Shown here piece after piece: positions 4,855 through 50,223 of a stretch of DNA of 58,702 nucleotides. A program made the translations under genes and the position numbers. The stretch is from assembly GCA_001775055.1 (NCBI GenBank), contig MFBU01000014.1, positions 59,833 through 118,534 on the forward strand, in the 5' to 3' direction. The number at the start of each line of letters is the position of its first letter. Within the stretch, counting starts at the first letter, position 1. The notes under the pieces were generated by a model. The model was not told the origin of the DNA, did no database searches, and saw only the letters and a list, made by a program, of their open reading frames with translations. The DNA comes from Candidatus Curtissbacteria bacterium RIFCSPLOWO2_02_41_11 (GTDB taxonomy: Bacteria; Patescibacteriota; Microgenomatia; Curtissbacterales; GWA2-41-24).

Positions 4855-5211
4855 ATGGATTTTAAAATAGTCTTTTACAAAGACAGTTTTGGCAAAAGTC
4901 CTATTGAAGAATTTTTTCTAAAACTTGCCAGCAGCAATAGATTACTATTGGCCAAAGCTCGGGAAGGGATCGAGAAGTTAAGAAATAGAGCTTATCACAG
5001 AGAACCTTTATCCAAGTACATAGAGCAAGGATTATGGGAACTAAGAGTAAGATCAAATAATGACATATTAAGAATTCTGTATACTTTTACTAAAGGACAA
5101 ATAATTATTTTATTGCACGTTTTTATTAAAAAACAACAAAAAACGTCCAAAAGTGAACTGGAAATTGCCAGGAAAAGACTCAAAGAATTAATAGCAAGGA
5201 AAGATTCATGA
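4855..5211 (+). CDS. RelE/HigB-like toxin (phage Gp49-like family)
   Basis: 118 aa. Motifs GLWELRV...ILRILYTF...IILLHVF are typical of Gp49/HigB-like toxins. 4-nt overlap with the downstream HTH gene. Confidence 0.75.
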   Translation: MDFKIVFYKDSFGKSPIEEFFLKLASSNRLLLAKAREGIEKLRNRAYHREPLSKYIEQGLWELRVRSNNDILRILYTFTKGQIIILLHVFIKKQQKTSKSELEIARKRLKELIARKDS

Positions 5212-5528
5212 AAAGAAAAAAGGATGATTTGGACAGATTAACAGAAAAACTTCTTAAAAAAGATCCTTCTTTAAAAGAAGAGTTTGAAAGGGCAGGCCAA
5301 GCCTGGGATATTGCATTTCAAATTTATGATCTTAGAAAAAAAGCAGGGCTTACTCAAGCACAGTTAGCAAGACTCGTTGGAACAAAACAATCTAATATAG
5401 CCAGAATCGAATCTGCAGATTATACAGGTTATACATTCAAGACCTTGGAAAAGGTTACTAAAGCTCTAAAATCTAAATTAGAGATAAAAATTGTTCCTAC
5501 AACTTACATAAGATCTGTCCAAGCCTAA
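5208..5528 (+). CDS. HTH XRE-family antitoxin (HigA-like)
   Basis: HTH segment GLTQAQLARLVGTKQSNIARIE. Translationally coupled to the upstream toxin-like gene. Confidence 0.75.
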   Translation: MKRKKDDLDRLTEKLLKKDPSLKEEFERAGQAWDIAFQIYDLRKKAGLTQAQLARLVGTKQSNIARIESADYTGYTFKTLEKVTKALKSKLEIKIVPTTYIRSVQA

Positions 5529-5571
5529 TTTTTTTCCCCCCCGAATCCGTCCCAAAGTTAATTACCAAGTA

Positions 5572-5607
5572 GTTGTAGAGTAACCACAAACGGAAGTACA
5601 ATTGGTC
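5572..5607 (+). repeat. 36-nt repeat X, copy 1 (second copy at 6076..6111)
   Basis: gttgtagagtaaccacaaacggaagtacaattggtc vs gttgtacataaaatctcaacggaagtacaattagtc. They share an exact core aacggaagtacaatt. The two copies flank the XRE gene 5694..5999. Confidence 0.5.
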
Positions 5608-5623
5608 TGTTGAATATGACAGC

Positions 5624-5652
5624 TTGACATTAAGTAACTTATAAGTTACCAT
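5624..5652 (+). promoter_or_regulatory. putative promoter with 16-bp perfect palindrome operator upstream of XRE gene
   Basis: TTGACA(5624)-N17-TACCAT(5647). The palindrome GTAACTTATAAGTTAC (5634..5649) overlaps the spacer and -10 box. Confidence 0.45.
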
Positions 5653-5693
5653 ATGAAAAAGAATATTTTCTTAGATAAGGAGATTAAAACAGT

Positions 5694-5999
5694 ATGAATC
5701 GTAAAATTAAACAAGCTGTCAAAAGAGGAGAATTAGTTGACTATACTGATCTGTTTGCCAGCTATTCTAAGAAACGCCAGCAGGAAATCTTGAAGCGAGC
5801 TAGATATTTAAAAGCTGCAATGGAGCTGAAAAAATTAAGAAAGCAGCTTAGAATCTCCCAAAATGAACTGGCTCGTAAGATGAAAGTAAAACGAGAATAT
5901 ATTACTCGAATTGAGAGCGGAGAGCAAAATATAACAATTGAAACCTTAAACAGGATAGCCGAAGCAACCGGTAAAGAGTTTGAGTTTCATTTTAAATAG
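5694..5999 (+). CDS. HTH XRE-family transcriptional regulator (possible orphan antitoxin)
   Basis: HTH ISQNELARKMKVKREYITRIESGEQN. 101 aa. Confidence 0.75.
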   Translation: MNRKIKQAVKRGELVDYTDLFASYSKKRQQEILKRARYLKAAMELKKLRKQLRISQNELARKMKVKREYITRIESGEQNITIETLNRIAEATGKEFEFHFK

Positions 6000-7181: not shown

Positions 7182-8111
7182 ATGAAACAGCTCATCATTG
7201 GTTTGTACACAATTCTGACAGTCACAATAGCGAATAACAGGTTTTACTTGGCGCGTATGCTGGGTTTTAGAAGTGAATTGGAGCTTAGAGATTTTTTTAT
7301 AAAAAAGAAAAAAACTTTGCTTGATGGGGGACAATTTATATTTATGCCAAGAGAAAATCTTAAGCATCGTCTTTTATATATCACGATTACAAAAGATGAG
7401 AAAGAAAATTATATAGAATTTTATAAAAATATTTCCAAAATACCTATCGTTTCTCAACTATTTTTTATCACTTATTCTAGTTCTAAACACTGGAAGGACT
7501 GCAACTTTAATGCGAGAATTGATGGAAAAATAGTCAATATCAAAATTCCCCAACCAAATTTTACAGTCTATGGGTTTAAGAATGGTAAGTTTGAAAAATC
7601 CCGCATTGAAAAAATCGTCGATAATTTTGAAAAGAAAAATAGTTTGAGCTTTGGACGACAAAAAGAAAATAAACTTTCTTATCTTTCAAAATATGCTATA
7701 GACTCAGTAGAATCTGTATATTCGAATCGTTTTTTTCTCGATGTTATTTTAAGGGAATATCGAAAAGGTATGATTGACTTCGATGGAATTTTGAAAAAAG
7801 ATGAAAACTATTTACTACTAGAATCAAAGGAAAAAGATGCTGGAGGGAATGAAGGGGATAAGTACTTTGGGTGGGATTCTAGAAGGTTGCCTTGGTACTT
7901 ATATATTAAAAATGTTAGCGGACTTGAGACGTTTTATGTGATAAGGGAGGTTGATAACCAAACGGATAGAAATTTTGTTGATTGGAGATGCATAAGTCTA
8001 AATGACTTTTCCGAATCAGCTTCTTGGTTATCGGAAAGTGGAGGTGGAGGGAATGTTGGGACGATTACTTGTCCGGTTGGGGCTTTTAAGAGCTTAAAAG
8101 AACTTCTGTAA
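7182..8111 (+). CDS. candidate PD-(D/E)xK restriction endonuclease partnered with the Dcm/Vsr genes
   Basis: IDFDGI...LLLESKEKD fits D...ExK. Convergent with vsr, overlapping it by 18 nt. No family can be assigned by eye. Confidence 0.5.
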   Translation: MKQLIIGLYTILTVTIANNRFYLARMLGFRSELELRDFFIKKKKTLLDGGQFIFMPRENLKHRLLYITITKDEKENYIEFYKNISKIPIVSQLFFITYSSSKHWKDCNFNARIDGKIVNIKIPQPNFTVYGFKNGKFEKSRIEKIVDNFEKKNSLSFGRQKENKLSYLSKYAIDSVESVYSNRFFLDVILREYRKGMIDFDGILKKDENYLLLESKEKDAGGNEGDKYFGWDSRRLPWYLYIKNVSGLETFYVIREVDNQTDRNFVDWRCISLNDFSESASWLSESGGGGNVGTITCPVGAFKSLKELL

Positions 8112-8525
8112 CTGATACATTATTTTTTTTGCCGGCTGAACATTTTTACTAACATTAAATTCGTGTTCCCAAATCCTTAGAACACTCCACCCTTCTTTTT
8201 TTAGACTTCTATTCACTTCTCTGTCCCTTATTAAATTACGCCTAATTTTAGGGAGCCAAAAATTCTTATTAGTTTTTGGTGCTACAAAATGGTGCTTACA
8301 TTTATGCCAAAAACACCCATCAATAAAAATGGCTACTTTTTTTCTTGTAAAAACTACATCAGGCTTTCCAGTCAGTTTGTAATTAAGTCTATAACCCCTT
8401 ATGTTGTTGATGAACAGTAATTTTCGAAGTTGAATCTCCGGACTTGTGTCTCTAGAGAGAATTCTCGACATGTTAAAGCTTCTTTGCTGCGGTGTTAACA
8501 CATCCATGCTAAAGATTATATTCAC
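8094..8525 (-). CDS. vsr: very short patch repair endonuclease Vsr
   Basis: RSFNMSRI..SRDTSPE, GKPDVVF, VAIFIDGCFWHKC match Vsr motifs. The true start may be the internal Met (MDVLTPQQRS) at 8507. Confidence 0.9.
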   Translation of the reverse strand: MNIIFSMDVLTPQQRSFNMSRILSRDTSPEIQLRKLLFINNIRGYRLNYKLTGKPDVVFTRKKVAIFIDGCFWHKCKHHFVAPKTNKNFWLPKIRRNLIRDREVNRSLKKEGWSVLRIWEHEFNVSKNVQPAKKIMYQLQKFF

Positions 8526-8551
8526 CCGAATATAAGTTTTCTAGGGGAGAA

Positions 8552-9619
8552 TCAGCCTAAGGTTAAATTTGAGTATCCGTGTTCAGCCAATATGTCAGTG
8601 ATTTTTAAAGGTTTATTTTCTCTCGTTGAAACTTTTTGAGTTTTCATTGAAATTAAAACATTTTTAGCTAGTTCTCTGATAACCGGAACCGACACACTGT
8701 TTCCGAATTGTTTATATGCTTGTAGATCACTAACTGGAATCATAAAAGAGTCGGGGAATCCTTGAAGACGTGCTGCTTCACGGGGTGTTAATTTTCTAGG
8801 ATTTTTTCCTTTTTGCTCAATTAAAATTTCCGACCCGTCCTTATAGTATCTGGCGGATATTGTGTTCGTGTATGAAGATTTTTCGCTGAATAGTCCATAA
8901 CCGAATCCATTTCCTTTTAATCTGTGCTCAATTTTTCTTCTTTTATGACCAGACCAAAGTTTGTCAGATATTGTATATTTTGGATCAAATTTTTTTTCAA
9001 GAATATCGCCTACTTTTGTTTTTTCTCTTGATGGGTTAGGGAAAGAAAAGCCAGCTTTACCAAGAAATGCCACTATATAAATTCTTTCCCTATTTTGAGG
9101 TAAACCAAAATCCTTTGCATTCAAAACCTTATGATAGACATTGTAACCAAGCTGGGTTAGAGTTTTATTAATTACTCTTAGCGTATTGCCGTTGTCGTGT
9201 GTACGAAGTCTCTTTACATTTTCCAAAAAAACAACCTTAGGCTTATGATAGTCTACTATTTTTGAAATATCGAAAAACAAAGTTCCTCGGGTGTCCCCGA
9301 AGCCTTTTTTAGTGCCTGCCTGTGAAAAAGGCTGGCAAGGGAAACCTGCTAAAAGAATATCAAAAAAAGGAATTTGCTCAGGTTTTATTTTTGTAATATC
9401 ACCACAAGGTATTTCTTTAAAATTGGCTTGATATGTAATCTGACAAGGACGATCCCATTCAGAAGAGAAAACACATTCGCCACCGAGGTCTTCAAATGGG
9501 ATTCTAATACCTCCAATTCCCGCAAAGAGATCAATGAATGTAAATTGTGACTTCATTTTTGAATTTGGGCTATCGAATAAAGATTTTATTTGGAGACTGT
9601 TTAATTTCGGGTAGGGCAT
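8552..9619 (-). CDS. dcm: DNA (cytosine-5)-methyltransferase
   Basis: FIDLFAGIGG (motif I), GFPCQPFS (motif IV), ENV (VI), QNRERIYIV (VIII), TPREAARLQGFPD, GNSVSVPV (X). The start may be the internal Met at 9556. Confidence 0.95.
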   Translation of the reverse strand: MPYPKLNSLQIKSLFDSPNSKMKSQFTFIDLFAGIGGIRIPFEDLGGECVFSSEWDRPCQITYQANFKEIPCGDITKIKPEQIPFFDILLAGFPCQPFSQAGTKKGFGDTRGTLFFDISKIVDYHKPKVVFLENVKRLRTHDNGNTLRVINKTLTQLGYNVYHKVLNAKDFGLPQNRERIYIVAFLGKAGFSFPNPSREKTKVGDILEKKFDPKYTISDKLWSGHKRRKIEHRLKGNGFGYGLFSEKSSYTNTISARYYKDGSEILIEQKGKNPRKLTPREAARLQGFPDSFMIPVSDLQAYKQFGNSVSVPVIRELAKNVLISMKTQKVSTRENKPLKITDILAEHGYSNLTLG

Positions 9620-13770: not shown

Positions 13771-13835
13771 ACATCCACTTCCGAGGTGTACTGGGTTTGC
13801 ACATCGGGATTATTCCTCCATTCTCAAATTCTTCC
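13771..13835 (+). repeat. hairpin repeat family H, copy 1
   Basis: acatccacttccgaggtgtactgggtttgcacatcgggattattcctccattctcaaattcttcc. Differs from 14432..14496 at 2 positions. Stem ccgaggtg/cacatcgg. Confidence 0.8.
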
Positions 13836-14431: not shown

Positions 14432-14496
14432 ACATCCACTTCCGAGGTGTACTGAATTTGCACATCGGGATTATTCCTCCATTCTCAAATTCTTCC
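14432..14496 (+). repeat. hairpin repeat family H, copy 2
   Basis: Near-identical to 13771..13835. Lies 73 nt upstream of the start of ORF 14569. Confidence 0.8.
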
Positions 14497-18300: not shown

Positions 18301-18686
18301 GGCTTGGAGAAATGGAAGTTTGGGCACTGGAGGCATATGGGGCTGCTTACTCTTTGCAAGAAATGTTAACTATTAAATCTGATGATGTTGTAGGTCGTGC
18401 CAAAGCCTTTGAAGCAATCATTAAAGGGGAGGAGATTCCGCAGGCTCTAATCCCTGAATCATTCAAGGTATTAGTTAAGGAATTAAATAGCTTAAGTCTG
18501 AGTGTTAGCACAATTGGTGCCAAGACGATTGAGAAAGCCAAAATTAAACCACAGGAAGAGGAAGAAACCAAACGAGCTCAAGAATTTGCAAAAGTTGCTG
18601 GAGCGCAAGTGATCGCCCAAAGTTCGGAAATCGCCAAAAGTGACAGCGCTATGGAAGTTGAAGAGGTAGGAGGAACTGCCAGATGA
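15309..18686 (+). CDS. rpoB: DNA-directed RNA polymerase subunit beta
   Basis: 1125 aa. Conserved beta-subunit blocks, e.g. GNRRVR, NPLSEV, RLTVMGTGG, GDKLAGRHGNKGV, GGQRLGEMEVWALEAYGAA. GTG start. Confidence 0.98.
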   Translation: MTKRISWGQPSNINLPSLDLIQVQRESFSEFLDKGIREILNEVSPIEDFTGKNFTLTFGNYSFGKSKYGPQEAIEKGVTYDLPLKLEAQVVNKQTGGKNSQEVFLCDLPVMLEKGSFVINGIERAVVTQLVRAPGVYYSGEIDPQSGKMLYSCEIRPLHGSWLEFAITKNDLITVKIDRRRKFPVTTFLRAIGFSESQSIIKLFSFVKDEQAKKLLNNTFAKDTTTLQEEALLEIYRRMRPGDHVILDNAKSLLENMFFNPRRYSLGKVGRYKIEKRLKYIKDHLTIEAHQDKDSQILTPSDFVAAIVYLFELMAGRGRVDDIDHLGNRRVRRVGELVAQNAFRVGILRLERVIKERMSLTPTDTVPSPASLINARPIISAINEFFRSSQLSTILDQTNPLSEVDNLRRLTVMGTGGIARERAAFSIRDINHSQYSRICPIRSPEGPNIGLVTYMALYCRVNEYGFLEAPYRRVVKDKNGKAKVTDEIIYMAADDEENYHITHAQVPIDSKGYFWEESIPVRYKGEFTTASRDLVEFIDVVPRQVVGTSASLIPFLAHDEANRALMGTHMQCQAVPLIKPKAPIIGTGMEEIVGFNMGRVVKAPQDGEIVYVDSKKVILKTKPQGVAKSGEITFPINKFSRSPQSTCYSQRPRVVMRQKVKKGDVLIDGSATDESELALGQNLTIAYMSFDGLGYEDAIVISDRLSKEDILTSIHIEEYETTVVETKLGPEETTRDIPNVSEEDLAKLDENGIVVVGAEVRPNDILVGKIAPKGETELTAEERLLRTIFGEKAREVRDTSLRVPHGEKGTVIDVKILSRDKGDELEHGALAKIIVKVAQMRKVVVGDKLAGRHGNKGVISKIVPTSDMPHLADGTPIDIIISPLSVLSRMNLGQLLETHLGWAVHTLGYKVAMPVFEHVSEEKVIEELKRANLPEDGRITLYDGRTGLPFDRPIVVGNTYIMKLIHMVEDKTHARSTGPYSLITQQPLGGKAQMGGQRLGEMEVWALEAYGAAYSLQEMLTIKSDDVVGRAKAFEAIIKGEEIPQALIPESFKVLVKELNSLSLSVSTIGAKTIEKAKIKPQEEEETKRAQEFAKVAGAQVIAQSSEIAKSDSAMEVEEVGGTAR

Positions 18687-21600
18687 ATGAATTAATTGAT
18701 TTTGAAGCACTAAAGATAACACTGTCTTCTTCCGAAGATATCAAAACCTGGTCTTTTGGTGAGGTTACTAAACCGGAGACAATTAACTACCGAACCTTAA
18801 AGCCCGAAAAAGATGGCCTTTTTGATGAACGAATTTTTGGGCCAACAAAAGATTGGGAATGTTATTGCGGCAAATATAAGCGAATTAGATACAGGGGGAT
18901 TATTTGTGACAAATGCGGTGTCGAAGTAACCCAATCGCGAGTAAGACGTGAGCGCATGGGGCATATTACTCTAGCCGCTCCGGTAGTCCATAATTGGTTT
19001 TTCAAAGGAAGTCCTTCTAAATTAGGTTTAATTTTGGATCTTTCTCCCCGAAGCTTGGATGCGGTTGTCTATTTTGCTTCATATTTGGCAATTGAAGTAG
19101 CTGACGAAGTTAAGAAACAAGTCATTAAAAAATTAAATGGAGAGCTTGAAAAGAAACGCAAAGAAGGGCAGTTGGAACTCAAGAAGAAGTTGGAAGAGCA
19201 GGAAAAAGAAGCTCAAAAGGAGATTTCGAAAATTAAGACTGGGGGTAAGGTTAAAGAGCAAACGGATTTGAAGATAGAAGAGGCTAGACTGTCGATGCGC
19301 CAAAGACAGGCAAAACTCCGTGATGAGAATGCTGTGGAGATCTTGCGGCTTGAGGAAATCTACAAAAATATTACCGATATGGTTTCTTCGATTAAACCCC
19401 TGGATATTCTTTCGGAGGAAGAGTATTTGAAACTAGCCGATTATAATGCCGAAGGTTTCCTCAAAGTTGGTATGGGGGCTGAAGCTTTATATCAGGTTCT
19501 TGAAAAAATCGATTTAGCCGAGCTTTCCATAAAGCTGCGTGAAGAAATACTCAGGGCAACCGGCCAAAAGTACATTAGAGCTACCAAAAAACTTCGGGTT
19601 GTCGAAAGCATGAAAAAATCCGGTATTTTGCCAACTTGGATGATAGTCAAAATTTTGCCGGTTTTACCGCCGGATTTAAGACCAATGGTCCAGCTTTCTG
19701 GGGGCAGATTTGCCACTTCTGACCTTAATGACCTTTACCGAAGAGTTATTAACAGAAACAACCGACTCAAAAAATTAATTGAATTGGGTGCACCGGAAAT
19801 AATCTTGCGCAATGAAAAAAGGATGTTGCAGGAGGCTGTTGATGCTCTTATTGATTCCCAGCGCATTAAATCAACCAGAGCATCTCAGGAGCTGAGATCT
19901 CTTTCCGATATGCTTCGGGGTAAACAGGGAAGATTTAGGCAAAATTTGTTGGGTAAACGTGTCGACTATTCAGGCAGATCGGTAATTGTAGTTGGACCGG
20001 AATTAACCTTAAATCAGGCGGGTATTCCTAAAGAAATGGCTCTTGAGATGTTTAAACCTTTTGTTCTTCGCGAAGTCATTGCCAAAGGGTACGCACCAAA
20101 TGTCAAAAGCGCCAAACATTATCTTGAGCGCAGAAGTGGTGAAGTCTGGGATATTTTAGAGGAAGTTACCAAAAACCATCCTATTCTTTTAAATAGAGCG
20201 CCGACTCTTCATCGTTTGGGGATTCAGGCATTTTACCCAATCTTAATAGAAGGTGATGCCATTAGAATCCATCCTTGTATTTGTGCCGGTTTTAATGCCG
20301 ATTTTGACGGTGACCAAATGGCTGTGCATGTGCCGCTCTCTGCCAAATCAAAAGAAGAAGCGGCTAACTTAATGGTAGCAGGCAAAAACTTACTGCGACC
20401 TGCTGACGGTTCACCAATAACCTTACCCAATAAGGAAATGGCGCTGGGAGTATATTACCTGACATCTCAGGATGCCCAGAGTTCTGAGTATCAAAATGTC
20501 TTCGCAAATGAACTGGATGTCATTTTGGCTTTGAATTCCGGCAAGATCAGGCTTAGGCAGCCGATAAAAATGAAAGCCGCAGGCGAAGTCATCGAGACAA
20601 CAGCAGGTAGGGTTCTATTTAACATGCAACTGCCCGAAGTCCTTCGTTTTATCAATGAAGCAGTCAGCGCTTCAACCATCAAAAGGTTAATTTCGGTGGC
20701 TATTGATCAGCTTAGCGAAGCTGAAGTTATTGATCTTATTGACAGGCTCAAAGGTTTTGGTTTTGAAGGAGCGACGTTTTCTGGCCTTTCGGTATCGGTT
20801 TTTGACTGTATGATTGTCGATGAGAAAAAACAAATTCTTCAAAAGGCAGAAAAAGAGGTTGAGGCTATTGAGAAGAATTTTAGACAGGGACTAATTACCA
20901 AAGATGAACAAAAGCGCCTCTCACAAGAAGTTTGGCTTTCAGTTACCAATAATTTGGCAGATTTAACTTGGAAGAGCTTGCCAAAGGATAACTCAATTAA
21001 AATTATTTCCGATTCAGGCGGTTCTCGGGCTACTGCCGAACAAATAAAACAGTTGGCAGCAATTCGTGGTCTAGTAACCGATCCGTCAGGCCAAATTGTA
21101 CCCCTTCCAGTAAAGTCAAATTTTAGAGAAGGGCTTTCAGTTTTTGAGTACTTTACTTCTGCCCGAGGTGCCAGAAAAGGTTTAGCCGATCGGGCTATTA
21201 AGACTGCCGAGAGCGGATATTTAACCAGGAGATTGGTTGATGTAGCTCATGATGCAATTATTAGAGTGGAAGACTGCGCAACTCATGAGGGAATTATTAT
21301 TTCCAAAAACGACCGTCGCTTAGCATCATTTACTGCAAGACTAGTAGGTAGAGTAACAGCCGCCGACATAATTTTTTCAAAGACTAAAAAAGTTTTGGTT
21401 AAGGCTGGTAGTCTTATTGATGAGCAAATGGCATCTGAAATAGAAAAAAACGGTTTTGAGGAAATTCTAGTCAGGTCTGTTCTTGCCTGTGAAGCTAAAT
21501 ACGGCTTATGTGCTATGTGTTATGGAAAGGATTTGGTTACCAGAAATTTAGTAGCAATTGGAACACCGGTTGGGGTCATTGCCGCCCAAAGTATTGGTGA

Positions 21601-22366
21601 GCCTGGCACTCAGTTGACAATGAGGACATTTCATACCGGTGGTATTGTCGGTTTGGACATTACCCAGGGTTTGCCGAGAGTAGAGGAACTTTTTGAAGCC
21701 AGGATGCCAAAGTTTGCTGCGGCTATTTCAGACATCACCGGTAAGATTAAAATTGAAGAATCTCCTCAAGGATTTCTGATTAAAATTAAAAGTACCAATC
21801 TCAAACCGCCGGTTGAACGTGAGTATTTTGTCCCGCCAACTTCGGAACTAACTGTTTCTAATGGTCAGCTAGTTACTGCCGGAATGCCCCTCTCAAGCGG
21901 CTATTTGGATGTTAAGGAAATTCTGGCAGTTTCCGGACTGCGCGCTGCCCAAAAATACATCACCAGTGGAGCTCAAGAGGTTTATGAAAGCCAGGGAGTA
22001 ACTATTAATGATAAACATTTCGAAGCCATTGTGCGAAAAATGAGTGACAAAGTTAGGATTGAATCGCCCGGCGATACGGTCCTTTTACCTGGAGAGCTAA
22101 TTGATAAAAATCGTTTTGAGGAAGAAAACGCTAAGGTTCTCGCAGAAGGCGGGGAGCCGGCAACTGCGCAAGTAATCATCCTGGGAATTACCAGGGCAGC
22201 TCTTTATACCGAGAGTTTTCTTTCAGCCGCTTCATTCCAAGAGACAACCAGGGTCTTGACCGATGCTGCTATTGAGGGCAAAGTGGATAATCTCCTTGGT
22301 CTTAAAGAAAACGTCATTATCGGAAGACTCATACCAACATCGCCCGAAAGGGCGCAGATACAATGA
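18683..22366 (+). CDS. rpoC: DNA-directed RNA polymerase subunit beta'
   Basis: 1227 aa. Zn-finger CYCGKY...CDKCGVEV, catalytic NADFDGDQMAVH, LNRAPTLHRLGIQAF. ATGA overlap with rpoB. Confidence 0.98.
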   Translation: MNELIDFEALKITLSSSEDIKTWSFGEVTKPETINYRTLKPEKDGLFDERIFGPTKDWECYCGKYKRIRYRGIICDKCGVEVTQSRVRRERMGHITLAAPVVHNWFFKGSPSKLGLILDLSPRSLDAVVYFASYLAIEVADEVKKQVIKKLNGELEKKRKEGQLELKKKLEEQEKEAQKEISKIKTGGKVKEQTDLKIEEARLSMRQRQAKLRDENAVEILRLEEIYKNITDMVSSIKPLDILSEEEYLKLADYNAEGFLKVGMGAEALYQVLEKIDLAELSIKLREEILRATGQKYIRATKKLRVVESMKKSGILPTWMIVKILPVLPPDLRPMVQLSGGRFATSDLNDLYRRVINRNNRLKKLIELGAPEIILRNEKRMLQEAVDALIDSQRIKSTRASQELRSLSDMLRGKQGRFRQNLLGKRVDYSGRSVIVVGPELTLNQAGIPKEMALEMFKPFVLREVIAKGYAPNVKSAKHYLERRSGEVWDILEEVTKNHPILLNRAPTLHRLGIQAFYPILIEGDAIRIHPCICAGFNADFDGDQMAVHVPLSAKSKEEAANLMVAGKNLLRPADGSPITLPNKEMALGVYYLTSQDAQSSEYQNVFANELDVILALNSGKIRLRQPIKMKAAGEVIETTAGRVLFNMQLPEVLRFINEAVSASTIKRLISVAIDQLSEAEVIDLIDRLKGFGFEGATFSGLSVSVFDCMIVDEKKQILQKAEKEVEAIEKNFRQGLITKDEQKRLSQEVWLSVTNNLADLTWKSLPKDNSIKIISDSGGSRATAEQIKQLAAIRGLVTDPSGQIVPLPVKSNFREGLSVFEYFTSARGARKGLADRAIKTAESGYLTRRLVDVAHDAIIRVEDCATHEGIIISKNDRRLASFTARLVGRVTAADIIFSKTKKVLVKAGSLIDEQMASEIEKNGFEEILVRSVLACEAKYGLCAMCYGKDLVTRNLVAIGTPVGVIAAQSIGEPGTQLTMRTFHTGGIVGLDITQGLPRVEELFEARMPKFAAAISDITGKIKIEESPQGFLIKIKSTNLKPPVEREYFVPPTSELTVSNGQLVTAGMPLSSGYLDVKEILAVSGLRAAQKYITSGAQEVYESQGVTINDKHFEAIVRKMSDKVRIESPGDTVLLPGELIDKNRFEEENAKVLAEGGEPATAQVIILGITRAALYTESFLSAASFQETTRVLTDAAIEGKVDNLLGLKENVIIGRLIPTSPERAQIQ

Positions 22367-22377
22367 GTCTAAAGATA

Positions 22378-22399
22378 ATATCAGACGAAGTGCTGATAT
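22378..22399 (+). repeat. ATATCAG/CTGATAT palindromic element A (minimal form)
   Basis: atatcag-acgaagtg-ctgatat. Lies between the rpoC stop and the relic rpoC 3' end. Confidence 0.65.
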
Positions 22400-22448
22400 A
22401 ATTGGCCGATTGATTCCAACCAGCCCTGAACGTGCAAGGATTCAGTAA
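22398..22448 (+). pseudogene. relic second copy of the rpoC 3' end
   Basis: Encodes IIGRLIPTSPERARIQ* vs authentic IIGRLIPTSPERAQIQ* (22316..22366). Almost every codon differs synonymously. It is in a different frame from rpoC. Confidence 0.8.
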
Positions 22449-22469
22449 ACCGGTCAATTCTGATATAAT
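22441..22469 (+). promoter_or_regulatory. putative rpsL promoter (extended -10)
   Basis: TGaTATAAT at 22461..22469 with a weak -35 TTCAGT 17 nt upstream. A second TGATATAAT lies at 22394..22402 inside element A. Confidence 0.45.
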
Positions 22470-22492
22470 CTGAAGATCAATTGGAGCATAGT

Positions 22493-22987
22493 ATGCCGAC
22501 AGTTAATCAACTTATAAGAAAAGGTCGAAAGTCAAAGCCAAAAAGAATAAGAGCAACGGCGCTTCGCCGTGCTTTTAACACGCATAAAAATAGGTACGTT
22601 TATTATCCTTCCGGTCAAAAAAGAGGTGTTTGCGTGGTTGTTAAAACCATGACACCCAAAAAACCGAATTCGGCGCTTAGAAAAGTTGCCAGAGTCCGTC
22701 TTTCCAATAAGCAAGAAGTAACTGCTTATATTCCAGGAATTGGCCATGAACTGGCCGAGCATTCGGTTGTTTTAATTCGCGGTGGCAGAGTTAGGGATTT
22801 ACCCGGAGTTAAATACCACATAATTCGAGGTAAATACGATACCACTGGTGTTGTTGGCAGGAAACAAGGACGCTCTTTATACGGTACTAAAATATCGGGT
22901 GCAGTTACGGGAGCCCAAGCGGCAGCAACTGTTGGTCAGGCGGCAGCAGTCTCACAGGCTCAAGTCGAAGCACCAGCAGAAGGCTAA
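22493..22987 (+). CDS. rpsL: 30S ribosomal protein S12 with about 30-aa Ala/Gln-rich C-terminal extension
   Basis: [13 protein letters not shown]...[15 protein letters not shown]...[20 protein letters not shown] 22493 is preceded by ggag. Confidence 0.95.
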
Positions 22988-23095
22988 TTTAAAAAGTAAA
23001 AATGAAAAAGGAAAAAGTAAATTTTCAATTTTCACTTGCCGAAAGCAACGCAAAGCTTTTCAATTTTCAATTTTGCGACCGAAGGGAGCATTATT

Positions 23096-23590
23096 GTGCC
23101 ACGAACTGGTAAGGTTGAAAAAAGACAAATTGCGCCAGATCCAATCTATCAAAGTCCTCAAGTTGCCAAGCTTGTTAATAAACTGATGATTTCCGGTAAG
23201 AAAGCTTTGGCGCAAAGAATTATTTATGAAGCTTTTAAATTAATTGCCAAAAAAGATAAAGATCCACTGGCGACATTTGAAAAGGCTCTGGAAAATGTTA
23301 CACCCAAAATGGAAGTTCGGCCAAGAAGAGTCGGTGGAGCTTCTTACATGGTCCCGATGGAAGTTAGAGGTGTCAGAAGAATGTCGCTTGCCATTTCTTG
23401 GTTGGTTGTTGCAGCCAGAAGCCGCACCCCTAGTGAAGTAGAAAAGCTTAAGAATAAACCGCTGATGATTTCTAAACTTACAGCCGAGATTTTAGATGCT
23501 GCCGAAGGCACTGGAAAGGCAGTTGCCAAAAGGGAAGAAATGCACCGCATGGCTGAGGCAAACAAAGCGTTCGCACACTTCAGGTGGTGA
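23096..23590 (+). CDS. rpsG: 30S ribosomal protein S7
   Basis: VPRTGKVEKRQIAPDPIY...MEVRPRRVGGASYMVP...ANKAFAHFRW. GTG 23096 follows gaagggag. The ORF track start at 23036 is probably too early. Confidence 0.95.
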   Translation: MPRTGKVEKRQIAPDPIYQSPQVAKLVNKLMISGKKALAQRIIYEAFKLIAKKDKDPLATFEKALENVTPKMEVRPRRVGGASYMVPMEVRGVRRMSLAISWLVVAARSRTPSEVEKLKNKPLMISKLTAEILDAAEGTGKAVAKREEMHRMAEANKAFAHFRW

Positions 23591-23602
23591 ACGAACGCTT
23601 TG
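23563..23602 (+). other. perfect 11-bp inverted repeat enclosing the rpsG stop codon
   Basis: caaagcgttcg (23563..23573) pairs with cgaacgctttg (23592..23602). The loop contains ...agg tgg tga. Confidence 0.7.
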
Positions 23603-23675
23603 TGCAGTCCTCCTAAATTTGCTCCTCGAGCCGTCTATGGATAATAGTGAAAAGGCGAGAGGTAAGAATTGGAGG

Positions 23676-23708
23676 GCAAATAAGGCTTTCGCACATTTTC
23701 GTTGGTAA
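23676..23708 (+). pseudogene. relic copy 2 of the rpsG 3' end
   Basis: gca aat aag gct ttc gca cat ttt cgt tgg taa = ANKAFAHFRW*. Identical peptide to the authentic end, with synonymous differences. Confidence 0.8.
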
Positions 23709-23783
23709 CGAAAATACTTGCAACTGCCTTGCGAGTACTGCGCTTGCTATCTAGATCGTTGTCAGATAGCACTCCGTACTCTA

Positions 23784-23810
23784 AAGGCTTTTGCCCACTT
23801 TCGTTGGTAA
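23784..23810 (+). pseudogene. relic copy 3 of the rpsG 3' end
   Basis: aag gct ttt gcc cac ttt cgt tgg taa = KAFAHFRW*. Confidence 0.75.
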
Positions 23811-23921
23811 TAGACTACTCGCCACAAATTCACCCAATGTGCTATAATCTGCGCTTAGTTTTGATTATTGTCAACAAGGCTATTTTTCTGCTTAAATAAA
23901 ATTTGTTAAGGATATTTGAAT

Positions 23922-24215
23922 ATGGTGCAAGCTAAAGCTCAAAAATTAAAACAATTAAAAAACAGGCTCAAAGAGCTTGAAGAAGTCAAGCTCAAAGAGG
24001 CGCTGGCCAAATATGGCGAGGCCTACCAAGAGTCCGGTTCGGCCTGGAATGAAAATGCTGCCTGGGAGCTTGCGGATGAAGAAGTTTCGGTACTTCGTGC
24101 AATGATTACCGAAATCAAAAATGAAATCAGAAATCTTGAGCATCCGGCAATTTCCCAGCTTAACGTTGAACCTCAAACTTCAAAAGCTGGTAAAAAATAT
24201 TCCAATTCCAAATAA
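23922..24215 (+). CDS. small coiled-coil protein resembling the GreA/GreB N-terminal domain only
   Basis: GEAYQESGSAWNENAAWELADEEVSVLRAMITEIKNEI parallels the GreA pattern (..GD..ENAEY.AA.E.Q....I..I). There is no C-terminal domain. aagga SD lies 8 nt before the ATG. TGcTATAAT at 23839..23847 lies upstream. Confidence 0.45.
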   Translation: MVQAKAQKLKQLKNRLKELEEVKLKEALAKYGEAYQESGSAWNENAAWELADEEVSVLRAMITEIKNEIRNLEHPAISQLNVEPQTSKAGKKYSNSK

Positions 24216-24228
24216 GACAGAAACTGCC

Positions 24229-24279
24229 ATGACACAGAAACAAAATAGACTGTATCCGCTTGACCGAATTCGCAATATA
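24229..24279 (+). pseudogene. relic copy of the fusA 5' end
   Basis: MTQKQNRLYPLDRIRNI vs authentic [17 protein letters not shown] (24374..). Divergence is synonymous. Homology stops exactly where palindromic element B begins. Confidence 0.75.
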
Positions 24280-24339
24280 TCAGCAGGTCGCCTTGGCACA
24301 ATTCTTCGAATTCGTGCCAAGGGCGCTCCTCTGATATAT
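24275..24339 (+). repeat. ATATCAG/CTGATAT palindromic element B
   Basis: atatatcagcaggtcgcc-[ttggcac aattc ttc gaatt c gtgccaa]-gggcgctcctctgatatat. The outer arms are the reverse complement of those in element C. The inner hairpin differs. Confidence 0.75.
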
Positions 24340-24373
24340 TGCTTGTTAGACTCGATGTCGAAAGGAGTTAATC

Positions 24374-26503
24374 ATGCCTGATAAAAACTCTCGACTATAT
24401 CCATTAGAAAGAATACGCAATATTGGTATTATTGCCCATATTGACGCGGGCAAAACCACGACAACTGAACGAATCCTTTTTTATACAGGCAAGACTTATA
24501 AACTGGGCAACATCGATGAAGGTAGCACCGTAACCGATTGGATGGCCCAGGAGAAAGAAAGAGGAATCACCATTGTATCGGCAGCAGTTACCACCTTCTG
24601 GATACCAAAAGAAGGTCCCTTTGCCGGTACTGAAACTCGGATTAATATCATTGATACTCCGGGTCACGTTGACTTTACGGCCGAGGTTGAAAGGTCACTT
24701 CGCGTTTTGGATGGTGGTGTAACAGTTTTAGACGCCGAGGAAGGCGTTCAATCGCAATCGGAAACAGTTTGGCGTCAGGCCGACAAATACAAAGTACCCC
24801 GAATTTGCTTTATCAACAAAATGGATAAAATGGGGGCAGACTATTTTGCCACTCTTAAATCAATCCGTGAGCGCCTTGGGGCTCCGGCCTGCCCATATAA
24901 TTTGCCATTAGGCCGCGAAAATGAATTTCAGGGAATCATTGACCTTTTGACTCAAAAAGCCTACGTCTGGAAAGACGAAACTGGTATGAAATTTGAAGAA
25001 ATTCCCATTCCAGAAGAGGAAAAGGCCAATGTTGAAAAATATCGGCACGAGCTTGTGGAAAAGATTGCCGAAAATGACGATACTTTACTCGAAAAATATT
25101 TAAAAGGCGAGCAAATTGAGACCGACGAGCTTAAGAAAGCTTTGAGGAAAGCCGTTATTACCTATAAAATCGTCCCGGTTTTGGCAGGTTCCAGTCTTCG
25201 CAATAAAGGAGTCCAGCCGCTTCTTGATGCAGTTGTTGATTATTTACCATCACCTCCAGATATTGTCGAGATTCAAGGAATTAATCCGAAAACCGGCGGA
25301 AAGGAAGTTCGTAAGCAAACTATAGATGCTCCTTTCTGCGGTTTGGCTTTCAAAATCCAAATTGATCCGCATGTCGGCAAACTTACTTATGTGCGAATTT
25401 ATTCCGGTACTTTAAAATCCGGGACTTCGGTTTTAAACGCCACTAGACACGATCGTGAAAGAATTGGCCGAATTCTTTTGATGCATGCCAATACCAGGGA
25501 AGAAATTGCTGAAAGCTATGCCGGAGAAATTATTGCTATTGTCGGACTCAAAAACACGGCCACAGGCGATACTCTTTGCAATGAGGCCGCTCCGATAATC
25601 TTAGAAACTATATCCTTTCCCGAACCGGTTATTTCCATGGCCATCGAACCTAATACCAAAGCGGATCAAGAAAAACTAGGTTACGCCTTAGGCAGGCTTA
25701 GTGAGGAAGATCCTACTTTTAAAATTAAAAGCGATTTTGAAACCGGTCAAACGATTATTTCCGGTATGGGCGAACTTCACTTAGAAATTTTGGTTGATCG
25801 TATGAAGCGCGAATTTGCGGTTGACGCCAAAGTCGGCAGACCTCAAGTTGCCTATAAAGAAACCATCGCAGGGCAAGCAACAGGTGAAGGTAAATACATT
25901 AGGCAATCCGGAGGCAGGGGTCAGTACGGCCATTGTTTCCTGCGGGTCGAACCTAAACCCCGCGGCGAAGGCTACGAATTTAAATCCGAAATCAAAGGCG
26001 GGGCGATTCCACAAGAATTTATACCGTCTGTTGAGAAGGGCGTTCGCGAAAAAATGGATATGGGTGTTTTAGCGGGTTTTCCGATGGTTGATATGAAAGT
26101 TGCTGTTTATGACGGAACTTATCACGATGTCGATTCTTCGGATATTGCCTTTAAAATCGCAGGAAGCTTGGCGCTCGAAGCGGCCGCCAAAAAAGCAGGC
26201 CTTACTCTTCTTGAGCCGATTATGAAAGTTGAAGTAACCATTCCTGAACAGTTCATGGGAGATGTTATTGGCGATTTATCGGCAAAACGGGCTCAAATTC
26301 TTTCAAGCGAACACCACGGCAAAAGTGTCATCATTACTGCTTTGGTACCACTTTCGGAAATGTCCGGATATGTGACAACTTTACGTTCTATGACTCAAGG
26401 CAGAGGTTCTGTCTATATGGAACCTTCTCACTACGAAGAAGTCCCCCAAAATATTGCAGATAAAATAGTGGCGAAAGCGAAAGGGGAGAGTAAAGAAAGC
26501 TAG
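24374..26503 (+). CDS. fusA: elongation factor G
   Basis: [38 protein letters not shown]. 709 aa. Confidence 0.98.
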
Positions 26504-26530
26504 CAAATTATAGGTGTACCACGAGTGGTC

Positions 26531-26608
26531 AGAGTATCAAGAGTACCACAAGCTTTTTAAGTTTTAAGCTCGTGATACCCGCGGTACTTTTAAAACCTTT
26601 GATACTCT
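26531..26608 (+). other. long imperfect hairpin downstream of fusA
   Basis: agagtatcaa (26531..26540) pairs perfectly with ttgatactct (26599..26608). An inner stem gtaccacaagc/gctcgtgatac is built from repeated words gtaccac/gtatcaa. Confidence 0.55.
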
Positions 26609-26732
26609 TAAATTCACCTCTTGCATTAGCCTGCCAAAATAGTATAAACTAGGCATTACAATCAGTCTAACTGACTGATGTTTTATTGCAATCAAAATTA
26701 CCCAAATTTCGAAGAAATTTGGATTTGACGGC

Positions 26733-27914
26733 ATGGCAGAAAAATTTGAAAGAACTAAACCGCATGTTAATATCGGCACCATTGGTCACGTAGACCATGG
26801 TAAGACCACGCTAACTTCGGCTATCACCAAAGTCTTGGCCAAAAAAGGTTTGGCTCAAGAAAAAACTTTCGATCAAATTGATAACGCTCCGGAGGAAAAA
26901 CAGCGCGGCATAACCATCAATATTACTCATGTGGAGTATGAAACCGAGAAGCGCCACTATGCCCATATTGACGCTCCAGGCCATGCAGACTATATCAAGA
27001 ACATGATTACCGGTGCTGCCCAGATGGACGGCGCAATTTTGGTGGTCTCTGCGCCTGACGGCCCTATGCCTCAAACCCGCGAACATGTACTTTTGGCAAG
27101 GCAAGTTAATGTCCCGGCCATTGTTGTCTATTTAAATAAGGTCGATATGGTTTCTGACAAAGAACTTTTGGATCTGGTTGAACTGGAGATTCGAGAGTTA
27201 CTTGATAAATACCAGTTTGACGGCAAAAATGCCGTCATCATTCGCGGTTCTGCCCTTAAAGCTTTGGAAGACGATGCCGAGGCAGTCAAATCAATTGAGG
27301 ATTTAATGGCCGCAGTTGATGAAAAAATTCCTACACCTGCTCGCGACCTCGACAAACCTTTCCTCATGCCTATCGAAGATGTTTTTTCAATTAAAGGTCG
27401 GGGAACTGTTGTTACCGGTCGTGTTGAGCGTGGCGTGGTTAAGGTTAATGAAGAGATTGAAATCGTCGGCATTAAACCTACCAAAAAGACAGTCGTTACC
27501 GGAGTTGAGATGTTCAGGAAGCAACTAGATCAAGGTCAGGCCGGTGATAATATCGGCGTCTTGCTTCGCGGAGTCGAAAAAGATGATGTTGAGCGCGGTC
27601 AGGTCTTAGCCAAACCGGGAACTACTACTCCCCATACCGAATTTGAAGCCGAGGTCTACATTTTAGCCAAAGAGGAAGGTGGCCGTCATACGCCATTTTT
27701 TACAGGTTACAGGCCTCAATTTTACATCAGAACTACCGATGTCACCGGCGAGGCCACTTTGCCTGAAGGCACGGAAATGGTCATGCCCGGCGACAACATC
27801 AAAATGAAAGTCAAACTTATTGCACCGGTTGCCCTAGAAGAAGGCTTAAGATTTGCAATTCGCGAGGGCGGCCACACGGTTGGCGCCGGCGTGGTTGCCA
27901 AGATTCTTGCCTAA
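26733..27914 (+). CDS. tuf: elongation factor Tu
   Basis: [32 protein letters not shown]. 393 aa. Confidence 0.98.
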
Positions 27915-27965: not shown

Positions 27966-28047
27966 ATATCTCAGCTCAGCTGAGTCTGATATATCAGAGG
28001 AGCGCCATTGCGAGGACTTTAGTCTCGCAAGGCGACCTGCTGATATA
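27966..28047 (+). repeat. ATATCAG/CTGATAT palindromic elements C0 (27966..27992) and C (27989..28047), sharing the junction ctgatatatcag
   Basis: C = atatatcagaggagcgcc-[attgcgagga cttta gtctcgcaa]-ggcgacctgctgatata. C0 = atatc(tc)ag-ctcagctgag-tctgatat. Confidence 0.7.
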
Positions 28048-28226
28048 CAATTGACGATCGCAAGATCTGAAGTGTGAAGTTAGAAATGCGAAGCTTGATT
28101 TTTGAAGTGAGAAAAATCGATTATAGCCAACTTTCAAATCAACTCGAATCTCACTTCGATATCTAGATTCCAACCCCTTACTTCTCACTTCTATTGTAAA
28201 CTTTCTGTCCGAAGGAGGTGTTACGA

Positions 28227-36409: not shown

Positions 36410-36456
36410 AAAATATAAAAATCAAATGATAAACTTAAATTTTAAATCGAAAATTT

Positions 36457-36543
36457 CAAAATTGGATCAGGCTTCGCCTGGACAATTTTGTCCATTAGGG
36501 GAAAGAGAATATTAAGGGAAAACCGTAAGGTTTGCCCTTAAAG
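36457..36543 (+). repeat. two-hairpin intergenic element E, copy 1 (upstream of rplF)
   Basis: caaaattggatcaggcttcgcctggacaattttgtccattaggggaaagagaatattaagggaaaaccgtaaggtttgcccttaaag aligns along its full length with 41049..41137 and 43029..43114. Confidence 0.8.
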
Positions 36544-41008: not shown

Positions 41009-41048
41009 TTAGGTACAATATAGTTTTAAGAAAAACATCTCTAGAATT

Positions 41049-41137
41049 AAATTTGAATCGAGCTTCGCTTGTTCAAATTTGTCAATTAAAGGAAAGGGGA
41101 ATATAAAGGGGAAAACCGTTAGGTTGTCCCCTTAAAG
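41049..41137 (+). repeat. two-hairpin intergenic element E, copy 2 (upstream of infA)
   Basis: taaatttgaatcgagcttcgcttgttcaaatttgtcaattaaaggaaaggggaatataaaggggaaaaccgttaggttgtccccttaaag. Ends 1 nt before the infA ATG. Confidence 0.8.
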
Positions 41138-42971: not shown

Positions 42972-43028
42972 CTAGAAATGCCCAAGGGCTAAACGACTAA
43001 TGACTAATGCAATAAGGAATATAAAATC

Positions 43029-43114
43029 CAAAATTAGATCTCGCTTAGCCAGTCTAATTTTGTCCATTAAAGGAAGAGGAATACTAAGGGGAAACCTTTG
43101 GTGTCCCCTTAGAG
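43029..43114 (+). repeat. two-hairpin intergenic element E, copy 3 (upstream of rpoA)
   Basis: caaaattagatctcgcttagccagtctaattttgtccattaaaggaagaggaatactaaggggaaacctttggtgtccccttagag. Confidence 0.8.
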
Positions 43115-47770: not shown

Positions 47771-47808
47771 ATCACTTCCGATTTGGACTAGCTTTGCACA
47801 TCGGGAAT
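47771..47808 (+). repeat. hairpin repeat family H, copy 3
   Basis: atcacttccgatttggactagctttgcacatcgggaat. Stem ccgatttg/cacatcgg. The upstream tatcacagaa also matches the flank of copy 1. Confidence 0.65.
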
Positions 47809-50093: not shown

Positions 50094-50110
50094 TATATGT
50101 CTCCTATCAA

Positions 50111-50146
50111 ACCCGGTGTGTATTAGCTTGACACATCGGGAATATT
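50111..50146 (+). repeat. hairpin repeat family H, copy 4 (immediately 3' of tRNA-Pro on the minus strand)
   Basis: Stem cccggtgtg (50112..50120) / cacatcggg (50132..50140), 9 bp including one G-U, with an 11-nt loop. Confidence 0.65.
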
Positions 50147-50149
50147 AAG

Positions 50150-50223
50150 TCGGGGTGGGCGGACTTGAACCGCCGACTTCCAGACCCCCAGCCTGGCGTT
50201 CTAGCCAACTGAACTACACCCCG
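50150..50223 (-). tRNA. tRNA-Pro (anticodon GGG)
   Basis: The reverse complement CGGGGTG-TA-GTTC-AGTTGGCTA-GAAC-G-CCAGG-CTGGGGG-TCTGG-AAGTC-GGCGG-TTCAAGT-CCGCC-CACCCCG-A folds as a cloverleaf. Anticodon loop C-U-GGG-G-G. Confidence 0.9.

Follow-up and report, generated by a model that had tools for sequence, protein, structure and literature searches.

In the window analysed here, a 58,702-nt stretch of contig MFBU01000014.1 from Candidatus Curtissbacteria bacterium RIFCSPLOWO2_02_41_11, the essential gene for elongation factor G (EF-G), fusA, carries two copies of its own 5' end. Alignment with related strains shows the upstream copy (24229-24279) to be the original fusA start. The same alignments show an insertion behind CGCAATAT, exactly in register: a 145-nt cassette that consists of a palindromic repeat (element B), a spacer with the Shine-Dalgarno (SD) sequence AAAGGAG and a diverged version of codons 1-17. 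The cassette brings its start codons in register, so that EF-G would now be made from the cassette start at 24374. Similar cassettes are found at this and other gene ends of related strains, which suggests that the termini of genes can be swapped in a way not yet described. The fusA 5' region is laid out as follows, with L-numbers denoting the related loci or haplotypes used for comparison:

24229-24279, plus strand: ancestral, displaced fusA start, codons 1-17, MTQKQNRLYPLDRIRNI; 46 of 51 nt identical to the start of L141, L174 and L175 and 48 of 51 to the relic of L180.
24229-24381, plus strand: leader open reading frame (ORF) of 50 codons, made up of the relic and read-through of palindrome and spacer; its TGA overlaps the fusA ATG (ATGCCTGA).
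24277-24337, plus strand: palindromic element B, arms ATATCAGCAGGTCGCC and GGCGCTCCTCTGATAT with a variable hairpin between them.
24338-24373, plus strand: cassette spacer of 36 nt, carrying AAAGGAG; 56% identical (unalignable) between sister strains.
24374-24424, plus strand: replacement fusA codons 1-17; 32 of 51 nt identical to the native start of L141 and 76% to L180.

Positions 24229-24279 read ATGACACAGAAACAAAATAGACTGTATCCGCTTGACCGAATTCGCAATATA and encode a second copy of the EF-G N-terminus, in which 12 of 17 amino acids and 34 of 51 nt are identical to the working start. Within the shared block RLYPL(D/E)RIRNI, seven of the 11 codons differ synonymously between the copies and one differs non-synonymously. 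Both copies close with the same 8 nt, CGCAATAT (24271-24278 and 24416-24423), and the SD sequence lies at 24361-24367, ahead of the start at 24374. When the two palindrome flanks are compared in translation, the score is 63, far above chance, since mismatched control flanks reach no more than 37. An initial annotation of this DNA had already read 24229-24279 as a relic EF-G start and 24374 as the real one, and had pointed to the different synonymous codons of the shared block; its sequence statements are all confirmed, while three of its details require amendment. The homology does break at a palindrome, but by the consensus of its family the element spans 24277-24337 (ATATCAG...CTGATAT) instead of 24275-24339, and the homology ends at 24278/24279, inside the ATAT foot. 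The relic has 17 codons of homology, as described, but is not bare, for it heads the 50-codon ORF. It is also correct that the real start has an SD sequence and the relic none, but this does not amount to decay, as the intact native starts of relatives lack one as well. Two other ways of accounting for the paired copies were discarded. Linkage of the relic to fusA by programmed bypass or frameshifting is at odds with copies that lie 145 nt apart (frame +1) and with the repetition of the full N-terminus, and a template/variable repeat pair of a diversity-generating retroelement is at odds with copy differences that are third-position synonymous and not adenine-specific.

The ancestral copy is identified by relatives in which the site is empty. 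In L141, L174 and L175, which have no insert, ATGGCACAGAAACAAAACAGACTGTATCCGCTTGAGCGAATTCGCAACATC runs straight into GGCATAATTGCCCAT, and by the counts given above this native start is closer to the relic than to the working start. It lies 13 nt after the stop of a small ORF, the same spacing as that of the window relic. A species-level survey of fusA 5' regions covered 28 Curtissbacteria loci, together with a metagenome-wide pattern scan. In most of the 28 loci fusA starts 10-13 nt past the stop of the small ORF, with a stop-to-GIIAH gap of 56-70 nt; native starts in relatives have no SD sequence and sit close behind this stop. The relic ATG of the window occupies exactly that ancestral position. 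Because both position and sequence of the relic match the empty-site alleles, it represents the native start, with 145 nt inserted after codon 16/17. The empty alleles thereby support the proposal of the initial annotation that an inserted segment supplied a new ribosome-binding site (RBS) and 5' end and displaced the old start, and the relic-type native start for which it suggested searching the relatives is the one found in L141, L174 and L175.

An in-situ tandem duplication of the fusA 5' end, with subsequent divergence and a palindrome gained later, would make the in-register structure automatic. Yet identity to the empty allele is 90% for the relic and 63% for the new copy, whole unalignable cassettes differ between sister strains, and in other relic pairs the differences are numerous and synonymous, with no non-synonymous one among them. 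Mixed-strain assembly could likewise be invoked at a conserved-gene locus, where strain mixtures complicate assembly, but the identical structure is found in five assemblies and related haplotypes come from other studies. Five independently assembled contigs from different samples encode an identical EF-G and are 99.8-100% identical to the window over 8 kb, every relic included. In one of them, L139, the differences are confined to the central hairpin of B (24290-24332) and four bases in tuf. Since these assemblies agree, including all relics, assembly error is very unlikely as the source of the fusA structure, which disposes of a worry voiced in the initial annotation; duplication or artefact is given practically no credence.

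How far the foreign tract reaches is seen most clearly against the sister haplotypes L180 and L181, which share about 92% nucleotide identity with the window from rpoC to tuf. Between the window and L180, identity is 98% in the small ORF, 94% in the relic, 81% in B, 56% in the unalignable spacer, 76% in the new start, 93-94% in the fusA body and 90-92% in tuf, the values for fusA and tuf being about the same as for rpoC and rpsL. Divergence from L180 is confined to the cassette. Against L141, the new start is 63% identical and the following 190 nt are 83-88% identical.

These comparisons show cassettes of this build in several unrelated lineages of Curtissbacteria, all at one and the same nucleotide of fusA. 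In the window, L176, L180/181, L179, L169, L165 and L170, the fusA relic breaks off behind the same Asn codon and borders directly on a B-type element, either intact or decayed; one nucleotide is used in at least seven haplotypes, with a (C/A)AATAT direct repeat at both cassette boundaries. In the window this repeat is CGCAATAT, identical at both ends, and in other lineages it is (C/A)AATA(T), within Asn-Ile codons that are conserved anyway. In an EF-G tree that includes four of the carriers (window, L169, L165 and L170), these lie scattered, and the nearest relative of each lacks the insert. Relics of carriers with a sister are similar to the native start of that sister, as in L170, whose relic MADKTN... 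matches the L172 start MADKTN...; the relic of L165 is decayed (NSSYSLDRTRN). Cassettes also differ between sister strains: the window (MPDKNS), L176 (MADKTS) and L180 (MASSSNS) have the small ORF, the relic and the junction of relic and B in common and hold three different cassettes. Ten independent fusA cassettes measure 27-194 nt. A B element at fusA with no relic was found neither in the 28 species loci nor in the metagenome-wide pattern scan. On this evidence the window event does not stand alone but exemplifies a cassette phenomenon that is site-specific and recurs in Curtissbacteria.

Pattern searches show that B belongs to a repeat family with many copies in Curtissbacteria. Matches to ATATCAGMRGRKCGCC-N15-45-GGCGMYCYKCTGATAT were obtained in 55 stretches of 27 assemblies, nearly all labelled Curtissbacteria, with several stretches inside single metagenome-assembled genomes. 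The 16-nt arms are invariant and share one asymmetry in all copies (left arm CAGCAGGTCGCC, right arm GGCGCTCCTCTG), and the hairpin centre is hypervariable: 54 distinct elements have 53 different self-complementary centres of 15-44 nt, which still fold (mean z = -3.7). Strains otherwise 99.8% identical (L139 and the window, 24290-24332) differ in this hairpin, both halves having changed together. Hairpins of the family fold at about -15 to -38 kcal/mol, and the RNA fold of 24229-24400, B with its flanks, reaches -56.5 kcal/mol (z = -5.5). A gene start faces at least one side of B in 55 of 58 copies, and the right arm faces the start in 38 cases versus 14. ATAT stands at both ends of 57 of the 58 copies, in loci picked by a pattern that itself contains ATAT. 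A second window copy (27991-28046, minus strand) lies in opposite orientation downstream of the tuf terminator. A known RNA family or riboswitch leader was rejected for want of an Rfam match: nothing reached the gathering threshold except one tRNA, and matches in 22300-24450 were at chance level only.

Among known repeats, the Correia elements of Neisseria (CREE), which have outward promoter activity, were used as a comparison for B (PMC2649163). As in CREE and other miniature inverted-repeat transposable elements (MITEs), B is short and multi-copy, has terminal inverted repeats in its 16-nt arms and is polymorphic for presence (at fusA, L141 and L175 are empty and the window filled; at rpoC, L180 is empty). 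It shares with CREE the AT-rich feet able to form -10-like boxes at either end and a strong transcript hairpin (PMC2649163), as well as a host lineage that takes up DNA, which for Curtissbacteria we only infer. Unlike CREE, B combines invariant 16-nt arms with a hypervariable centre, and unlike CREE and MITEs it has no cognate transposase or clear target-site duplication shown, no systematic search for an autonomous partner having been made. We know of no CREE insertion that comes with a replacement copy of the adjacent gene terminus. Many B copies end in TGATATAAT, with an ATG about 20-50 nt further on, and TGATATATT at 24332-24340 in the window, formed by the right foot of B and the start of the spacer, looks by eye like an extended -10. 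At the level of motifs, this suggests that the right end of B may act as an outward promoter, as in Correia elements.

B also resembles integron attC sites and repetitive extragenic palindromes (REP), with their conserved outer inverted boxes, a conserved asymmetry from bulged bases and a self-complementary centre that varies in both sequence and length. However, its termini are ATATCAG/CTGATAT instead of the RYYYAAC/GTTRRRY of attC, and its arms, which start with ATATCAG, have no GTAG-type motif of the REP/REPIN kind. No tyrosine recombinase, intI/attI array, RAYT gene or Y1 transposase was found among the window ORFs scanned, the scan being limited to the window. Unlike integron cassettes, those of Curtissbacteria carry gene fragments and not whole ORFs.

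The architecture seen at fusA recurs at other gene ends of the same operon, which in the window comprises the following features:

18683-22366: rpoC, in the ribosomal-protein/RNA-polymerase super-operon.
22316-22399, plus strand: rpoC 3' cassette, 80-nt and in register, with the new last 16 codons, TGA, 11 nt and a mini-B (22378-22399).
22398-22448, plus strand: displaced native rpoC 3' end, IIGRLIPTSPERARIQ and stop; 46 of 51 nt identical to the only rpoC end of L180.
22493-22987: rpsL.
23096-23590: rpsG.
23591-23810, plus strand: nested rpsG 3' cassettes, with palindrome A (23591-23675), relic 1 (ANKAFAHFRW and stop, 23676-23708), palindrome D (23709-23783) and relic 2 (KAFAHFRW and stop, 23784-23810).
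23922-24215, plus strand: small 97-amino-acid ORF that precedes fusA in Curtissbacteria, gene-called in independent contigs.
24374-26503, plus strand: fusA (EF-G, 709 amino acids), with Pfam GTP_EFTU, EFG_III, EFG_IV and EFG_C.
26733-27914: tuf.

All fetched loci were scanned for C-terminal relics with a stop, 30-300 nt past the real stop. Such relics occur in Curtissbacteria-type loci (rpoC, rpsG, fusA, rpsJ and others) and in none of about 30 Acidobacteria control loci or other Microgenomates. A palindrome of family B, D, C or A lies between the real 3' end and the relic, which adjoins the palindrome foot; family D has GCGCTCC in common with B. Judged from these alignments, comparable cassettes, each with a replacement end, a stop and a palindrome abutting the displaced native end, are shown at the 3' ends of rpoC, rpsG, rpsJ and fusA. 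Terminal duplications flank five of 57 B copies (scores 61-137, control maximum 37), one of them a 5' case at an fpg/mutM-like gene. Precise hairpin-foot junctions are found at fusA, rpoC (window and L127) and fpg (L110).

At rpoC, L180 (~4140-4200) has no cassette, and its single rpoC end corresponds to the window relic, in agreement with the suggestion of the initial annotation that the fusA start mirrors the 3'-end relics. L127 has a full-length B at the same rpoC junction. Real and relic rpoC ends differ at 20 nt with one amino-acid change, a Ser being encoded by TCG in one and AGC in the other, and in L084 the two ends show 16 synonymous and no non-synonymous differences over 25 codons. 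Because the differences are almost only synonymous, real and relic ends must have evolved in separate lineages, each as a functional terminus, and not through decay of a duplicate made in place. The rpsG 3' end (23561-23810) holds three copies of KAFAHFRW and stop from two nested cassettes. Multiple rpsG ends are found only in Curtissbacteria-type loci, L145, L144, L127, L032 and L005 among them; L180 (5380-5450) has one D-type cassette at rpsG, and L176 (1-260) a single in-register hybrid end, formed within a 5-nt identity (CACTT). Relics of the fusA 3' end (ADKIVAKQKGETKES and stop, among others) stand behind a third palindrome family (GAGTTTACCCTGAACG..AGTGAAGG) in relatives (L001 6136-6230, L032 6142-6245 and L127; compare window 26504-26620), and L144 has an rpsJ 3' relic of 21 amino acids behind a D-type palindrome. 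At the fpg/mutM-like gene of L110 (2190-2470), the displaced start (I)PELPEVTVIVNQL lies at the left foot of B and the new start MPELPEVTVITNQL 46 nt past B; this relic begins with an ATT start codon, and its ORF stops at a TGA inside the right arm. A separate case is L128 (reverse strand, 2099-2360), with a 225-nt insert that contains a small hydrophobic ORF between 36-nt gene-end repeats identical at 35 of 36 positions (KKWGLEFRMDL and stop); it is apparently a very recent case of the same process, in which an entire small gene was carried along.

Larger elements with a related architecture are known. SXT/R391 integrative and conjugative elements (ICEs) insert in the 5' end of prfC, a translational GTPase gene (PMC2791158), and in the case of e14 in icd, icd and icdC recombine on excision, giving hybrid ends (PMC13626634). 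In both, the native terminus is retained as a displaced relic, and a diverged but working terminus comes in register with the element, which is also the arrangement of the window insert; prfC and fusA are both translational GTPase genes hit at the 5' end, and the in-register hybrid rpsG end of L176 resembles the icd/icdC hybrids. The fusA cassette could on these grounds be the scar of a large phage or ICE that brought in the replacement start and was later deleted to about 100 nt, since a displaced native end with an element-borne functional end is the architecture of e14-icd/icdC and SXT-prfC (PMC13626634; PMC2791158). The ten independent fusA cassettes are no larger than stated above, however, every 3' cassette measures 30-300 nt, no cassette contains an integrase, and no full-size element occupies these sites in the 28 species loci, which leaves such a scar highly improbable. 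A decayed prophage or ICE was dropped as a candidate, all inserts being tiny. In contrast to e14 and SXT, the Curtissbacteria insert is 145 nt long, with a read-through leader as its only ORF and no integrase, and its build recurs at many genes with different small palindromes and turns over between strains that are 92-100% identical. Because integrase and kilobase size are absent, the fusA cassette is not a member of the e14/SXT kind.

Five features have to be covered by any model of insertion: the in-register position, a diverged functional terminus, the junction at the palindrome foot, reuse of the same nucleotide and rapid turnover. The proposal favoured here, homology-guided on the gene side and with hairpin-foot joining on the other, is held at slightly less than even confidence. 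The cassette would derive from DNA of a related Curtissbacteria lineage. Recombination on the gene side would be guided by homology in conserved codons 16-20, and the other side would be joined precisely at the palindrome foot, at the point of departure, through ATAT microhomology; ATAT or AT microhomology is present at the B-foot junctions. The event would thus be one-sided homologous or a template switch, with the hairpin defining a DNA end, and in-register insertion would be automatic, with no need for 'designed' cargo. A homologous anchor inside the fusA body is undetectable against L180 and possible against L141. Homology-facilitated illegitimate recombination, or template switching after natural transformation, has been discussed as a concept (PMC6382021). 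The cassettes would resemble its products in having one homologous junction and one at a microhomology of a few nucleotides (ATAT), with a donor about 10-35% diverged. They differ in junctions that fall repeatedly at the exact palindrome foot and the same codon in many lineages, and in a tiny tract with no visible extension into the gene body.

Three of the five features are better served by a miniature site-specific cassette than by the homology-guided proposal. Such a unit of ~145 nt, circular or single-stranded and consisting of B, spacer and codons 1-16, would recombine through its folded palindrome foot with AATAT in fusA codons 16-17, catalysed by a recombinase or transposase that acts in trans and is specific for hairpins, of an integron attC-like or IS200/REP-RAYT-like kind. 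The copy of the gene end would be 'designed' cargo, as in SXT-prfC or e14-icd. Such a cassette would account better for the foot junction, the same-nucleotide reuse with (C/A)AATAT at both boundaries in at least seven haplotypes, and the rapid turnover by which sister strains hold different cassettes at one site. B termini are always intact at junctions, and invariant asymmetric arms around a hypervariable self-complementary centre resemble hairpin sites recognised by proteins. Yet no recombinase is linked to B in the scanned window ORFs, where only an IS3-type rve fragment and a NUMOD3-HNH endonuclease are found, far from the cassettes. The integron R-box consensus is absent, some cassettes lack a palindrome, and cassettes are seen only beside the cognate gene and in register, which a recombinase recognising ATAT alone would not explain. 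A site-specific unit is accordingly regarded as the chief rival, possible but unlikely.

The relic is probably not dead, as its reading frame still seems to start a leader ORF coupled to fusA. Nine of ten independent fusA cassettes leave the ORF that begins at the relic open across the insert, and its stop falls at -17 to +14 nt relative to the new ATG, with stop/start junctions such as ATGCCTGA (window), TAAATG and ATGGCGGCTAA. In L139, where the palindrome is 4 nt longer and the frame shifted, the ORF still ends 5 nt before the ATG, and the frame that would reach a TGA in the right arm of B is used in none of the seven B-containing fusA cassettes. Since native starts have no SD sequence and lie close behind the small ORF, reinitiation at the relic ATG is what the ancestral layout already relied on. 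Ribosomes leaving the small upstream ORF would reinitiate at 24229 and translate the 50-codon leader through the palindrome, melting the hairpin. Leader translation would end on the new start (ATGCCTGA) and keep fusA coupled, while the cassette SD sequence, possibly with the extended -10 in the right foot of B, would add autonomous expression of fusA. That the old fusA start is still used for coupled translation is somewhat favoured over its disuse. In mycobacterial interspersed repetitive units (MIRU), an intercistronic repeat keeps an open frame, its stop overlapping or abutting the next start. The fusA cassettes are alike in that the leader stop overlaps or abuts the next start, and unlike in that the leader ORF opens with the true, now displaced start of the very gene that follows.

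The explanation as a whole, in which a native relic, an in-register cassette, a coupled leader and homology-guided installation are combined, is considered probable, with appreciable doubt. Several observations weigh against it. The range of -17 to +14 nt for the leader stop, which shuffled inserts reproduce with P about 4e-6, was set post hoc, and the coupling pattern is absent from cassette L153 and from the fpg case in L110. The promoter scan called no full sigma-70 site in B or the spacer, and a canonical sigma-70 promoter within B was thereby rejected; an upstream promoter is placed at 23819-23848, ahead of the small ORF. No enzyme for cassette insertion was identified among the window ORFs scanned. 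Three lineages (L164, L156/L161) have short fusA cassettes free of a palindrome, their relic being cut after RLY, so the palindrome is not obligatory. A donor lineage with the exact MPDKNS start or the spacer was found neither among the 120 closest EF-G clusters nor in the metagenome scan, and the foreign origin of the window cassette is therefore read from its divergence and not traced. Recombination mosaics blur the tract boundaries as well. L175 (3427 nt) is 100% identical to window positions 21130-23906 (2.8 kb, rpoC-rpsG) and then continues with an L141-type small ORF and fusA; in L174 (4035 nt) the same module of small ORF, fusA and tuf follows an unrelated gene for a membrane protein; L181 (5153 nt) is window-like through the small ORF and L180-like beyond. 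Such haplotypes point to very frequent recombination between lineages, chimeric contigs being the less likely source.

The replaced tract might also be larger than the cassette. Fourfold-degenerate divergence between the window and L141 is 0.28 in the small ORF and relic and 0.55 in the fusA body, and this roughly twofold rise in synonymous divergence would fit a large xenologous replacement by homology-facilitated illegitimate recombination. A foreign fragment running from B through fusA, and perhaps through tuf to the second B (27991-28046), would have crossed over homologously on the right and been joined illegitimately to codon 17 on the left. In the small ORF, L141 is clearly the closest relative, with 88% against 74-79% in others, but it loses this clear lead in fusA (80 against 78%) and in tuf (77 against 81% in L142), and inverted B copies bracket fusA-tuf. 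The closer sisters L180 and L181, however, keep the high identities given above in fusA and tuf, with sharp divergence only inside the cassette, and L141, whose own lineage is a mosaic, does not provide a clean test. Whole-gene replacement, hinted at by L141, is not upheld by L180 and was set aside; the xenologous tract is judged improbable relative to a short, homology-guided cassette.

It can be proposed, tentatively, that these structures form an undescribed class of 50-200 nt 'gene-end replacement cassettes', each a family-specific palindrome with a substitute 5' or 3' terminus of the adjoining gene, which is often essential. They would move between Curtissbacteria lineages, directed by the hairpin foot and guided in register by homology, turn over rapidly at set positions of rpoC, rpsG, fusA and rpsJ, and rewire expression through SD sequences or promoters, terminators and coupled leaders. 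A search of the available literature gave no description of such cassettes in the candidate phyla radiation (CPR)/Patescibacteria. The genes for EF-G, RpoC, S7 and S10 are essential and highly conserved and usually count as the most static part of a genome, and here their ends are repeatedly overwritten and differ between near-identical strains. Were this general in CPR, it would be a new way in which organisms with minimal genomes, for which no genetics exists, exchange DNA horizontally and renew promoters, RBSs and terminators, and it would provide natural markers to track strain-level recombination. Annotators would be warned that short 'orphan' ORFs and duplicated gene ends beside palindromes are real. 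Phylogenetic markers would be affected, as the history of rpoC, rpsG and fusA may differ between gene ends and gene bodies, and a hairpin-directed recombination activity would be of possible biotechnological interest.

The operon belongs to a member of the Microgenomates, within CPR, and the closest species-level genomes encode an EF-G that is 81-83% identical. Homologues of the 97-amino-acid ORF lie upstream of fusA in the 28 Curtissbacteria species loci, all of which were retrieved via that ORF, and 38 residues are invariant across the loci (window 23922-24215 and L146-L173). It matches Pfam PF03449 (GreA_GreB_N, an N-terminal coiled coil) with E=1e-3, below the family cutoff. Upstream of this ORF in L176 (270-385) and L180 (5565-5680), and not in the window, lies a GAAGTGAGAA/TTCTCACTTC-rich repeat, which the window has between tuf and the next ORF (28050-28200).

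The window contains other repeats as well. A 65-nt hairpin repeat (CACTTCCGAGGTGTAC...GCACATCGGGA), with a 97% identical pair, is found at 13771-13835, 14432-14496, 47773-47806 and 50108-50141; one copy separates a tRNA (50150-50223) from the start of the NUMOD3-HNH homing-endonuclease gene (49392-50093, minus strand). Segments are duplicated at 6226-6283/7078-7135 and 11744-11788/12937-12981. The window also encodes an IS3-type integrase-core (rve) ORF (46315-47007, minus strand), a C5 cytosine methylase with a Vsr mismatch endonuclease (8094-9619, minus strand) and Gp49-like/HTH toxin-antitoxin-like pairs (4855-5999). Finally, a conserved motif of about 74 nt ending in GGAAAGAGAATATTAAGGGAAAACC precedes several ribosomal-protein blocks (36451-36524, 41042-41115 and 43023-43096), as well as rpsG in L001 (~3000-3040), and may be a shared promoter or leader.

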